Source: a phage. Taken from it: 64,000 nt of DNA. A program made the position numbers and the translations under genes. Where the stretch lies: the sequence record OZ335961.1; one strand, given 5' to 3'. This document shows positions 38,235 through 39,645 of this stretch, one piece after another. The notes below the pieces were generated by a model. That model saw only the letters and a list, made by a program, of their open reading frames with translations, ran no database searches and was not told where the DNA came from. The stretch's first letter is position 1, and the number at the start of each line of letters is the position of its first letter.

Positions 38235-38310
38235 TTCTTGTTTGGTCGAGGCAGTAGGGATCGAACCTACGACCTAGGACTTAGAAGGTCCTTGCTCTTC
38301 CTTCTGAGCT
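38235..38310 (-). tRNA. tRNA-Arg (anticodon UCU)
   Basis: Hand-folded cloverleaf, perfect 7-bp acceptor stem, GGTTCGATCC T-arm, encoded CCA; coordinates approximate. Confidence 0.7.
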
Positions 38311-38314
38311 ATGC

Positions 38315-38389
38315 CTCGTATTTGGCGGACATGCATGGATTCGAACCATGGACCAATTGATTAACAGTCAACTGCTCTACCACTGAGCT
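38315..38389 (-). tRNA. tRNA-Asn (anticodon GUU)
   Basis: Hand-folded; anticodon loop CUGUUAA; GGTTCGAATCC T-arm; encoded CCA; coordinates approximate. Confidence 0.6.
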
Positions 38390-38394
38390 ACACA

Positions 38395-38480
38395 TCCAAA
38401 TTGGTGGGGAGTGGTGGAGTCGAACCACCCGAGTCGCAATGACAATGGATTTACAGTCCACACCGCTACCTCTACGGGAT
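38395..38480 (-). tRNA. tRNA-Tyr (anticodon GUA), type II with long variable arm
   Basis: Hand-folded; anticodon loop CUGUAAA; long variable arm like bacterial tRNA-Tyr; encoded CCA; coordinates approximate. Confidence 0.55.
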
Positions 38481-38489
38481 AACTCCCCA

Positions 38490-38564
38490 AATTAATTTGG
38501 TGGCCCTGGGTGGAATTGAACCACCGTCTGGCGATTATGAGTCGCTTGCTTGAACCTTCCAGCT
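38490..38564 (-). tRNA. tRNA with CAU anticodon (Ile2 or Met type)
   Basis: Hand-folded; anticodon loop CUCAUAA; encoded CCA; coordinates approximate. Confidence 0.6.
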
Positions 38565-38565
38565 A

Positions 38566-38641
38566 CAGGGCCTTGGTGCTGATTGACGGAATCGAACCGC
38601 CGACCTTCTCATTACAAGTGAGTTGCTCTACCTACTGAGCT
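38566..38641 (-). tRNA. tRNA-Thr (anticodon UGU)
   Basis: Hand-folded; anticodon loop CUUGUAA; 1 nt from neighbouring tRNA; coordinates approximate. Confidence 0.65.
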
Positions 38642-38646
38642 AAATC

Positions 38647-38736
38647 AGCAAAACTGGCGGAGGCGATAGGATTTGAACCTATGAGTCGCCGGAGCGACTG
38701 CCGGTTTTCAAGACCGGTGCATTAAACCACTCTGCC
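38647..38736 (-). tRNA. tRNA-Ser (anticodon UGA), type II
   Basis: Hand-folded; long variable arm; sequence GGAGGCGTGGCAGAGTGG... matches T4 tRNA-Ser as recalled; coordinates approximate. Confidence 0.7.
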
Positions 38737-38750
38737 ACGCCTCCAAATAT

Positions 38751-39401
38751 TTATATATTGTTAATTTGATTTAGAATTCTTTTTGCTTGAGTATGACTTA
38801 CGCCAATATGCTTAGCATATTTAGATAATTCACCGCGCTTAGAAAAATCATATAATTTAGAAATTTCTATTCTTCTTTTTCTTTCATCCGCAGAAACTTT
38901 TGCTTCGTTCGCTTTTGCTATTTTACGTTTAGCTTCTTGAGAATGAGTTTTACCAGCAAAGCCATTCTTCATTAATCCATTTGAAGACCATCCTTTTAAT
39001 TTTCCGTTAGAATGTGCCTTTTTAACACCCAATGAAATTAATTCGCGTTGCTGATCTGTCATAGGATAATTATTTATATGATCCCATCCACCTTCACCGC
39101 CAAGTTTTAAATTATACACATCTGGTCTATTTAAAAACTCTTCTGTAACAATATTTTTCTCGGCTTCAAGCATAGATTCTTTATCATCAAAATACTCTAA
39201 TATTTCTTTAGAGAAATTTTCTATACCATACTTATCTTGGGCTCGTTTTAATAATTTACCAGAACCCATATATCCATCATCTAAATTTTCGGTAGAATGC
39301 ACACCAATATAAATTTTATTATTAATTTTATTTGTTATTTTATAAAGATAAAAATGCATATCAGTCCCTAATAAAGAACTGAGCGTCTCACGACGAGTCA
39401 T
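38751..39401 (-). mobile_element. segB: GIY-YIG homing endonuclease (SegB-like) embedded in tRNA cluster
   Basis: 216-aa ORF; N-terminal GIY-YIG motif FYLYKITNKINNKIYIGVHS...GYMGSG; located between tRNA-Gly and tRNA-Ser. Confidence 0.75.
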
Positions 39402-39405
39402 AAAT

Positions 39406-39479
39406 TGGAGCGGATAATGAGAATCGAACTCACATCATCAGATTGGAAGTCTGAGGTAATACCATTATACGATATCCGC
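39406..39479 (-). tRNA. tRNA-Gly (anticodon UCC)
   Basis: Hand-folded; anticodon loop CUUCCAA; encoded CCA. Confidence 0.7.
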
Positions 39480-39484
39480 AAATT

Positions 39485-39571
39485 TGGTGCGAGAAGTGGG
39501 ACTCGAACCCACAAGGAAATCATTCCGCAGCATTTTAAGTGCTGTGCCTTTACCAATTTGACCATTCTCGC
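39485..39571 (-). tRNA. tRNA-Leu (anticodon UAA), type II
   Basis: Sequence GCGAGAATGGTCAAATTGGTAAAGGCACAGCACTTAAAATGCTG... matches T4 tRNA-Leu as recalled. Confidence 0.8.
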
Positions 39572-39572
39572 G

Positions 39573-39645
39573 CTGGGAATAAAGGACTCGAACCTTTGCA
39601 TCCTGGAATCAAAATCCAGTGCCTTACCAACTTGGCTAATTCCCA
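39573..39645 (-). tRNA. tRNA-Gln (anticodon UUG); 3' CCA apparently not encoded
   Basis: Starts TGGGAATTAGCCAAGTTGGTAAGGCA...; anticodon loop UUUUGAU; abuts tRNA-Leu (dimeric precursor arrangement). Confidence 0.7.

Follow-up and report, generated by a model that had tools for sequence, protein, structure and literature searches.

A SegB-family endonuclease gene in the tRNA-Pro position of a Tequatrovirus tRNA operon

Introduction

SegB of phage T4 is a GIY-YIG endonuclease whose site of about 27 bp lies at the 3' ends of tRNA genes, with the core GGTTCRANTCC … CCAR; it favours the tRNA-Asn of T2L, which five nucleotides make its preferred site (PMC2330249). In crosses of T4 and T2L, segB was recovered in 99.6% of the progeny if intact and in 63% if deleted, and its homing replaces about 1,250 bp of T2L, comprising tRNA-Met, -Tyr, -Asn and -Arg and two open reading frames (ORFs) (PMC2330249). 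SegB of T6 cuts within tRNA genes, where its motif corresponds to the same TψC sequence in reverse complement, and it drives a recombination-dependent amplification of tRNA-Tyr that overcomes Septu (PMC13096335). The present analysis concerns a related gene that separates tRNA-Gly from tRNA-Ser within the tRNA cluster of a phage DNA stretch of 64,000 nucleotides (record OZ335961.1; the whole stretch is referred to as the window).

The locus is very probably a Tequatrovirus tRNA operon with a modular SegB-type homing endonuclease cassette that replaced tRNA-Pro, its other differences from T4 following from the lack of a T4-type segB. The layout itself is already known from public records, as the same block occurs in 56 phage records and the exact arrangement has been deposited since 2009 (RB51). 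Endonuclease-driven replacement of tRNA cassettes is also published, for T4 SegB (2008, PMC2330249) and T6 SegB (2026, PMC13096335).

Results

tRNA genes of the cluster

tRNA genes were called with ARAGORN over the whole 64 kb and independently with the Rfam tRNA covariance model RF00005 (gathering score 29 bits). ARAGORN identified nine, all on the minus strand and the sole calls in the window. RF00005 matched the same nine above its gathering score, with 59-73 bits for all except tRNA-Tyr, whose 30.3 bits are marginal, as is usual for tRNAs with a long variable arm; the expression and function of the T6 tRNA-Tyr have been demonstrated (PMC13096335). With a covariance score above threshold and a second caller in agreement, all nine are canonical tRNA genes. 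On the minus strand they are arranged as Gln, Leu, Gly, GIY-YIG ORF, Ser, Thr, CAU, Tyr, Asn and Arg.

An earlier, sequence-only reading of the window had given this order and these anticodons, divided into two clusters by a GIY-YIG gene between Gly and Ser, and both callers reproduced it. The set that it had given for T4 (Gln, Leu, Gly, Pro, Ser, Thr, Ile, Arg) was recovered when the T4 region was run through the same caller. Its statement that Tyr and Asn are extra relative to T4 was likewise confirmed, both calls being kept by ARAGORN and Rfam. The same applies to the absence of tRNA-Pro: searches of the 64 kb with the tRNA-Pro of T4 and of Klebsiella phage Mineola (blastn-short) detected neither the gene nor a remnant, only matches of at most 13 nucleotides (nt) in the T and D arms of other window tRNAs. 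For the CAU tRNA, Ile2 or Met had been proposed, of which Ile2 stood and Met did not. Judged by its 81.6% full-length identity to Escherichia coli genes annotated as tRNA-Ile (5,412 genomes), it is of the Ile2 type, whose CAU anticodon reads AUA once C34 is modified to lysidine, and the RB51 annotators made the same call.

The window belongs to Tequatrovirus. A 2.5-kb query of the cluster matched 1,031 phage records, nearly all of them T4-like phages of Escherichia, Shigella and relatives, with KIT03 as the best match (96.8%). The same nine tRNAs together with the same endonuclease gene occur in RB51 (deposited 2009), JLBYU24 and phiC600P9. Across the 14 loci that were compared, the presence of Pro, Ser, Thr, Tyr, Asn and His varies (Table 2), which supports the cassette-type gain and loss of tRNA genes that had been suggested from the sequence, including an HNH gene for Gln in CM8.

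The cassette in the place of tRNA-Pro

In T2 the homologous stretch is composed of tRNA-Gly, ATTTAATTTA, tRNA-Pro and tRNA-Ser, and the flanks in the window are identical to it (Gly 74/74 plus ATTTA, Ser 90/90). This identity implies that about 85 bp with tRNA-Pro were replaced by a cassette of about 660 bp. At the left junction, the 3' CCA of tRNA-Gly is followed by ATTTA, giving CTCCA-ATTTA/TGACTCG (slashes mark the cassette border). T6 has the identical left junction, but after tRNA-Tyr (CCACCA-ATTTA/TGACTCG), and both junctions lie at most 4 nt from the main cut point of T4 SegB, just 3' of CCAR (PMC2330249). At the right junction, the homology to Mineola ends at AATCAAATTA, after which 17 unrelated nt including the ORF stop lead to tRNA-Ser.

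Among Tequatrovirus carriers of the window-type gene, all 56 records, a count that includes RefSeq/GenBank duplicates, have contiguous tRNA-Gly, homing endonuclease gene and tRNA-Ser with tRNA-Pro gone. The cassette is a single full-length piece with 98.0-99.3% identity in 54 of them and is cut by the record ends in the other two. The intact order Gly-Pro-Ser was found in 448 records.

In Jiaodavirus (Klebsiella), the same cassette lies within the 5 nt that separate tRNA-Gly from tRNA-Pro, and its empty and occupied alleles are clean. The occupied form was found in 14 records and the empty two-piece pattern in 23 of 40 sampled records. Trp, Gly and Pro span 336-340 bp in the empty records, compared to 1,033 bp in Mineola. 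The empty site reads CTCCA-AATTA-CTCCGT and the occupied one CTCCA-AATT/GTGACTCG…AATCAAAATT/ACTCCGTATAG, with AAATT-ACTCCGT at the right end. The occupied form thus has an AAATT repeat at its borders, and the stop codon of the ORF lies inside tRNA-Pro.

Modular structure of the endonuclease gene

The gap between tRNA-Gly and tRNA-Ser holds a minus-strand ORF with mechanical bounds 38751-39401 and a probable start at 39359, which gives 202 amino acids (aa). Met 39359 is the likely translation start because it fits the numbering of the T6 SegB mutant Y17A/G19A (PMC13096335), because the RB51 and Mineola genes are annotated from that Met, and because the 46 nt upstream are conserved as nucleotides and not as codons. 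Both positions mutated in T6 SegB, Y17 and G19, are conserved in the window protein. The ORF passes the Pfam models PF01541 (GIY-YIG; 26.8 bits, cut-off 22.6) and PF19835 (25.8 bits, cut-off 25). It has the properties of a GIY-YIG homing endonuclease gene, namely the catalytic domain and a free-standing presence/absence distribution with a precise empty site, and it is intact in every carrier examined.

BLASTP against T4 SegB aligned only aa 15-131 of the mechanical ORF. At the DNA level, the block 39071-39345 is 97.8% identical to T4 segB and the block 39071-39414 is 97.4% identical to T6, with noise on both sides. The catalytic core shares 95% of its aa with T4 and 98% with T6. In contrast, the C-terminal half shares 19% aa with T4 and T6 SegB in a global alignment, compared to 50% with Mineola, where the last ~100 nt reach 90-96%. 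This half, referred to as module B, is presumed to be the DNA-binding and specificity half, and no T4-type C-terminal module (module A) was detected anywhere in the window. A protein search with the C-terminal module alone gave no matches, and tblastn of annotated phages served as a partial substitute; a scan of IMG/VR for related loci returned distant relatives only, with 28-49% identity.

A module-by-module comparison of nine genes separated two types of leader and two types of C-terminal half. The leader is of type A in T4, G8 and AnYang and of type B in the window, T6 and Mineola. The C-terminal half is of type A in T4, T6, G8 and AnYang and of type B in the window and Mineola. In every case the exchange point lies directly past GGWDH(I/V)N, where the catalytic domain ends. 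The catalytic core follows the phage clade and not the C-terminal type, with 87% identity between T4 and AnYang and 73% between the window and Mineola, each pair being of the same type. By its modules, T6 SegB is a natural recombinant of leader B and C-terminal module A. The slot follows the module type, since type A genes lie directly before tRNA-Arg and type B genes directly after tRNA-Gly in both Tequatrovirus and Jiaodavirus.

The leader of 46 nt moves along with the gene, with 96% identity to T6 segB and 86% to Mineola; it is unrelated to that of T4 segB (56% of nt, which equals noise). A predicted 9-bp hairpin in the leader (39361-39382) sequesters the Shine-Dalgarno sequence, and A-U/G-U changes maintain its pairing in T6 and Mineola. 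T4 segB has a hairpin of its own at the ribosome-binding site (RBS), within its unrelated leader (PMC2330249). A separate possibility, that the leader is a degenerate 5' half of tRNA-Pro left by insertion inside the tRNA, was rejected, as the best local match was 8 nt and 10.8% of shuffles equalled it.

Public records name the same gene inconsistently (segB, segD, SegB-like, group I intron endonuclease). Both the 'truncated SegB-like protein' of RB51 and the 'segB' of KIT03 match the window protein at 100% identity. The label segD is unfit, as the catalytic core is that of SegB. The label 'group I intron endonuclease' does not fit either: the Rfam gathering scan gave no intron family match, and both neighbours, tRNA-Gly and tRNA-Ser, are whole genes without interruption. 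Orthology to T4 SegB would require C-terminal homology and a locus between tRNA-Ile and tRNA-Arg; the C-terminal halves share the 19% aa given above, and the gene lies between Gly and Ser. Owing to these two mismatches it is named a SegB-family variant and not segB.

The slot of T4 segB

The position that segB occupies in T4 holds tRNA-Tyr and tRNA-Asn in the window, and the Ile2, Tyr and Arg alleles are T2-type and not T4-type (48/75 for Ile2 and 49/76 for Arg against T4). All four carriers of a type A SegB (T4, T6, G8 and AnYang) are without tRNA-Asn, and T2, which has no SegB, possesses Pro as well as Asn. The exact SegB core motif GGTTCRANTCC is present in seven of the nine window tRNAs. 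The 3' 27-mer of the window tRNA-Asn, GGTTCGAATCCATGCATGTCCGCCAAA, keeps all five T2L preference nucleotides (G6, A16, G18, A26, A27). With a T2-like type A slot that is free of segB, these nucleotides kept and the core motif in most of its tRNAs, the phage should be a recipient for T4/T6-type SegB.

The suggestion that the embedded endonuclease may drive the differences in tRNA content is supported, with one refinement. The embedded gene accounts for the loss of Pro only (56/56 against 448 records), and the Tyr/Asn difference is better explained by T4's own segB at the other slot.

Table 1. Positions of the tRNA genes, the endonuclease gene and adjoining elements in the window, together with the tRNA-His found in related loci.
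Feature	Position	Strand	Basis and remarks
tRNA-Gln (UUG)	39572..39645	-	First in cluster; ARAGORN; Rfam 67.4 bits
tRNA-Leu (UAA)	39485..39571	-	ARAGORN and Rfam; 87/87, identical to T4, T6 and T2
tRNA-Gly (UCC)	39406..39479	-	ARAGORN and Rfam; 74/74, identical to T4, T6 and T2
Endonuclease leader, 46 nt	39360..39405	-	Moves along with the endonuclease gene
GIY-YIG catalytic module, aa 1-97 from Met 39359	39069..39359	-	PF01541; identity to T4/T6 segB
C-terminal module B (linker, NUMOD3-like motif, helix-turn-helix-like tail, stop)	38751..39068	-	Homology to Mineola
tRNA-Ser (UGA)	38655..38744	-	ARAGORN and Rfam; 90/90, identical to T2; 6 nt past the endonuclease stop
tRNA-Thr (UGU)	38574..38649	-	ARAGORN and Rfam; 73/76 to T4
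tRNA-CAU, Ile2 type	38498..38572	-	ARAGORN and Rfam; 74/75 to T2, 48/75 to T4
tRNA-Tyr (GUA), not in T4	38402..38488	-	ARAGORN; Rfam 30.3 bits; 86/87 to T6, 85/87 to T2
tRNA-Asn (GUU), not in T4 or T6	38323..38397	-	ARAGORN and Rfam
tRNA-Arg (UCU), T2-type allele	38243..38318	-	ARAGORN and Rfam; 75/76 to T2, 49/76 to T4
rnaD and rnaC homologues (T4 stable RNAs, species 2 and 1)	37968..38242	-	92.8% over 279 nt to T4 rnaD plus rnaC
Intrinsic terminator-like hairpin closing the tRNA unit	37903..37926	-	10-bp stem, 7 G-C pairs, T run
tRNA-His of KIT03 / teqdroes	2386-2461 and 3377-3452 (extracted-locus positions)		GUN anticodon; variable slot before tRNA-Arg

Table 2. Order of tRNA and endonuclease genes in the window and related loci.
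Phage	Gene order
T4, G8	Gln, Leu, Gly, Pro, Ser, Thr, Ile2, SegB, Arg
T6	Gln, Leu, Gly, Pro/Thr hybrid, Ile2, Tyr, SegB, Arg
T2	Gln, Leu, Gly, Pro, Ser, 133-aa ORF, Ile2, Tyr, Asn, Arg
Window, RB51, JLBYU24, phiC600P9	Gln, Leu, Gly, SegB-like, Ser, Thr, Ile2, Tyr, Asn, Arg
KIT03, teqdroes	Window order with His added ahead of Arg
CM8	HNH gene (replacing Gln), Leu, Gly, SegB-like, Ser, Thr, Ile2, Arg

Variation of the cluster in related phages

In T6 (AP018814.1, about 66642-66724; locus positions 2643-2725), the annotated tRNA-Thr is a hybrid of Pro and Thr. It consists of the 5' acceptor strand of tRNA-Pro (CTCCGTG), the shared D-arm TAGCTCAGT and the remainder of tRNA-Thr, a structure that implies recombination between tRNA genes with deletion of Pro-3'/Ser/Thr-5'. 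ARAGORN called six tRNAs in this locus and not the hybrid, which is therefore probably a pseudo-tRNA. The cluster of Shigella phage CM8 contains two unrelated endonuclease genes and six tRNAs only; its HNH endonuclease gene takes the place of tRNA-Gln (locus positions 2862-3470), and Tyr and Asn are missing too.

Sequences resembling the C-terminal module were found at two further places. The 133-aa ORF T2_137 of T2 ('hypothetical protein'; locus positions 3309-3710) lies between tRNA-Ser and tRNA-Ile2, in the slot of tRNA-Thr in other phages, and its C-terminal tail (…NVSHTQARKFLNKY) is 33-43% identical to the C-terminal module of the window endonuclease. Neither a GIY-YIG domain nor any Pfam match was found in T2_137, which may be a remnant of the same DNA-binding module or a different nuclease fused to it. 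In Serratia phage LC53 (Winklervirus), an unannotated stretch between tRNA-Asp and tRNA-Lys (locus positions 2501-2770) has, in translation, 41% identity to module B and is possibly a decayed endonuclease copy in a third genus.

tRNA-Asn occurs as two alleles among carriers of the same endonuclease, one in the window and RB51 and the other in KIT03 and T2 (59/75 identical). In the anticodon and T stems the two alleles differ by compensatory changes, and each folds as a cloverleaf. tRNA-Gln of Tequatrovirus is also dimorphic, with eight differing positions, none of them outside the anticodon stem-loop of 17 nt (Fisher p = 1.6e-6). Changes in the stem compensate each other, further differences lie at loop positions 32 and 38, and the remaining 57 nt are identical; the window differs from T4, T2 and T6 in this stem-loop only. 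The window allele is present in 291 records and the T4-type allele in 127. This dimorphism could result from pressure by anticodon-loop nucleases. The Gln allele was also considered as a marker of co-conversion with the endonuclease, as it was linked in 6/6 versus 0/3 loci at first, but it failed on the whole collection, in which 291 records have the allele, 56 carry the endonuclease and one of these carriers has the other allele.

The tRNAs that vary in the slot before tRNA-Arg, namely Tyr, Asn and the His of KIT03 and teqdroes, share GUN anticodons. Such tRNAs form the queuosine family, which is the target group of some anticodon nucleases. Given the effect of the T6 tRNA-Tyr on Septu, this slot may collect counter-defence tRNAs.

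Surroundings of the operon

T4 continues Arg-rnaD-rnaC when run through the same caller. No Rfam family was found for the rnaC/rnaD homologues in an E-value scan of the region past tRNA-Arg, and they are named through their identity to T4. Transcription in T4 terminates after species 1 RNA (PMC2330249), with which the hairpin at 37903-37926 agrees. The tRNA cluster and rnaD/rnaC are probably read as one precursor ending at this hairpin. A promoter scan returned 8 sites, compared to 10.0 ± 3.1 in shuffled sequence, with T4 middle promoters lying outside the models of the tool.

A mosaic map of 36.5-41.5 kb revealed more indel cassettes on both sides of the cluster. The ORF 37375-37848 (157 aa) is without counterpart in T4, T6 and T2 and is flanked by near-identical terminator hairpins at 37344-37367 and 37903-37926 (AGCCCCRRCCRAAAGGTTGGGGCT and a T run), and the RB51 record notes a 34-bp imperfect direct repeat; it looks like a cassette flanked by duplicated terminators. 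Its N-terminus MKSYAQFLNEA is similar to the capsid-targeting sequence of T4 internal head proteins. For the ORF 36686-37249 (187 aa; cassette 36678-37336), none of the loci of T4, T6, T2, RB51, KIT03, JLBYU24 and teqdroes contains a counterpart. Its protein is found in 165 phage records at ≥95% identity, every one 'hypothetical', and has an internal-protein-like N-terminus (MKTYAEFLTEA). Directly upstream of tRNA-Gln, the ORF 39732-40247 (171 aa, no Pfam match) is a presence/absence cassette between trna.2 and tRNA-Gln, present in T2, KIT03, JLBYU24 and CM8 and absent from T4, T6, RB51, G8, teqdroes and phiC600P9.

Discussion

Proposed mechanism

Following the transcription picture of T4, the endonuclease would be transcribed within the tRNA precursor, and the leader hairpin, by burying the Shine-Dalgarno sequence, would hold its expression low. 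During mixed infection, the enzyme would attack relatives that lack the endonuclease, cutting a tRNA gene at its 3' end or close to it, directly past CCAR, with the cut predicted near the Gly-Pro junction. The break would be repaired by recombination from the endonuclease-carrying genome, so that the gene would be copied in with flanking tRNA genes. The native slot of the variant is probably the tRNA-Gly/tRNA-Pro spacer, as in Jiaodavirus, and in the Tequatrovirus lineage tRNA-Pro was replaced outright. The Tyr, Asn and T2-type Ile2 and Arg of the window would reflect the absence of a T4-type segB, whose slot in T4 is before tRNA-Arg. Activity of the module-B enzyme is expected because its catalytic core is 95-98% identical to those of T4 and T6 SegB, and its target site and homing are likewise drawn by analogy with these enzymes. 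The loci examined all fit a rule by which each SegB variant excludes the tRNA with its known or predicted preferred site.

Several observations weigh against a mobile, two-domain enzyme that removed tRNA-Pro. All Tequatrovirus copies have identical junctions and 98-100% identity, which fits a single vertically inherited event equally well, and T6 lost tRNA-Pro through the Pro/Thr hybrid deletion, without a module-B gene. The NUMOD3 model falls just short of its cut-off in the window protein (20.1 bits versus 20.4), compared to 24.0 in the Mineola homologue. A single-sequence AlphaFold2 (AF2) model reached a mean predicted local distance difference test (pLDDT) of 53 and left the fold unconfirmed, with values of 82-90 only at aa ~161-200, in short helices. 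A sequence search of PDB found no relatives of the window endonuclease, and the RB51 annotators labelled the gene 'truncated SegB-like'.

Alternative explanations

The gene could serve the phage mainly through breaks that set off a reversible tandem amplification of anti-defence tRNA genes in the vicinity, the 'genomic accordion' described for T6 SegB (PMC13096335), and not through homing. We regard this as rather doubtful. The core and leader are 96-98% identical to those of T6, tRNA-Tyr is present, and the core motif recurs in most of the window tRNAs. However, the window gene lies four tRNA genes away from tRNA-Tyr and not adjacent to it, its C-terminal module differs so that the cleavage preference may differ as well, and the tRNAs are single copy with no tandem amplification in the window. 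The two roles are also compatible, and amplification would not exclude homing.

It is unlikely that a single old insertion left the gene as a frozen relic, perhaps inactive or domesticated, with T-even repertoires kept by descent and by selection on tRNA roles (AT-rich codons, replacement of tRNAs destroyed by host defences) and no ongoing homing. The uniform junctions and the 98.0-99.3% identity throughout the 56 carriers would be expected of such a relic, as would the 'truncated' annotation in RB51. The action of the T6 tRNA-Tyr against Septu (PMC13096335) points to functional selection on tRNA content, and the tRNA-Gln dimorphism (291 versus 127 records) segregates independently of the endonuclease. 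Against this stand the intact ORF in all carriers examined and the close match of its core to active enzymes. The exchange of the core between two C-terminal types and the leader-B/C-terminal-A recombinant of T6 imply that these genes recently met and recombined. Furthermore, the same cassette shows a clean presence/absence polymorphism in a second genus, and its carriers are otherwise mosaic (His, ORF351 and ORF171 present or not; two Asn alleles).

That the loss of Pro had nothing to do with the endonuclease, which merely landed near an ordinary recombination between conserved arms of adjacent tRNA genes, is very improbable, for although tRNA clusters are repeat-rich and T6 shows just such a deletion inside the shared TAGCTCAGT D-arm, where ARAGORN rejects the resulting hybrid and a module-B gene is lacking, the window flanks are identical to T2 up to a cassette that fills the exact Pro interval, the association holds in 56/56 records, and the cassette stop inside tRNA-Pro in Jiaodavirus implies that cassette and Pro abutted in the ancestral arrangement.

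Implications

Beyond the favoured reading of a SegB-type cassette that replaced tRNA-Pro, a wider generalization is possible and is offered tentatively. The SegB family of T-even-type phages may comprise at least two natural specificity variants with one core, in which leaders and C-terminal modules have been swapped at the GGWDH(I/V)N hinge. Type A would home before tRNA-Arg with tRNA-Asn as its target, and type B would home to the Gly/Pro junction, its predicted target lying in tRNA-Pro or beside it. If each erases the tRNA with its own site, the T-even tRNA repertoire would largely be a readout of the variant carried, and T6 would be an A/B chimera. In the searchable literature, no description was found of a two-module SegB family, of the Gly/Pro slot or of a link between module B and the loss of Pro. 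The two-module reading is plausible, but it elaborates on a kind of system that is already well understood.

The split and variable cluster as such matters little, since variable T-even tRNA clusters and the role of SegB in their exchange have been documented since 2008. The locus is nevertheless a textbook-clean example of a selfish nuclease shaping the accessory gene content of a phage. It is also topical, as phage tRNAs, in particular tRNA-Tyr, are now known to act against defence systems that cleave tRNAs and are amplified by T6 SegB. The module-swapped variant offers a natural experiment on target change in GIY-YIG homing endonucleases, with clean alleles of both states, empty and occupied, in two genera and with many isolates that can be cultured. 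If the two-module reading is true, it would be a natural example of the retargeting of a GIY-YIG nuclease through domain exchange.

Comparison with known systems

I-TevI of the T4 td intron has an N-terminal GIY-YIG domain, a linker, and C-terminal NUMOD3-type elements with a terminal helix-turn-helix, a two-domain layout that the window protein presumably shares, and its expression is likewise held down by an RBS hairpin (PMC2330249 / PMC2988022 and general knowledge). I-TevI is encoded in a group I intron, whereas the window gene is free-standing, with no intron detected and no sequence match to solved structures.

T4 SegB (Brok-Volchanskaya et al. 2008, PMC2330249) is likewise a free-standing GIY-YIG gene in a tRNA cluster, directly 3' of a tRNA CCA. 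The cores share 95% of aa and 97.8% of nt, an RBS-sequestering hairpin lies upstream, and the presence of the gene correlates with the absence of neighbouring tRNAs. In contrast, the leader (56% nt) and the C-terminal half (19% aa) are unrelated, and T4 SegB is 221 aa long compared to 202 aa in the window. The slot in T4 is between tRNA-Ile and tRNA-Arg with loss of Tyr and Asn, whereas the slot in the window follows tRNA-Gly with loss of Pro.

T6 SegB (Chihara et al. 2026, PMC13096335) is closer in its leader (96%), its first codons (MHFYLYK) and its core (98% aa), and the Tequatrovirus tRNA cluster in which it lies also contains tRNA-Tyr (86/87). It differs by its T4-type C-terminal module and its location between tRNA-Tyr and tRNA-Arg, and the amplification of tRNA-Tyr has been demonstrated for T6 only.

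The SegB-like protein of Mineola (Jiaodavirus; YP_010096117.1) is colinear over its full length (61% aa), with a leader identity of 86%, a near-identical helix-turn-helix tail and a location directly after tRNA-Gly. Its core, however, is only 73% identical, tRNA-Pro is kept with the ORF stop inside it, and the phage belongs to another genus with another host.

The closest relative is the RB51 gene (FJ839693, ACP31058.1), which is the same in AR1, HY01, KIT03, RB18, RB68 and others, with 100% aa identity. Compared to this group, the window diverges by about 1-5% of nt, is without ORF351 and tRNA-His, and carries both ORF171 and ORF187.

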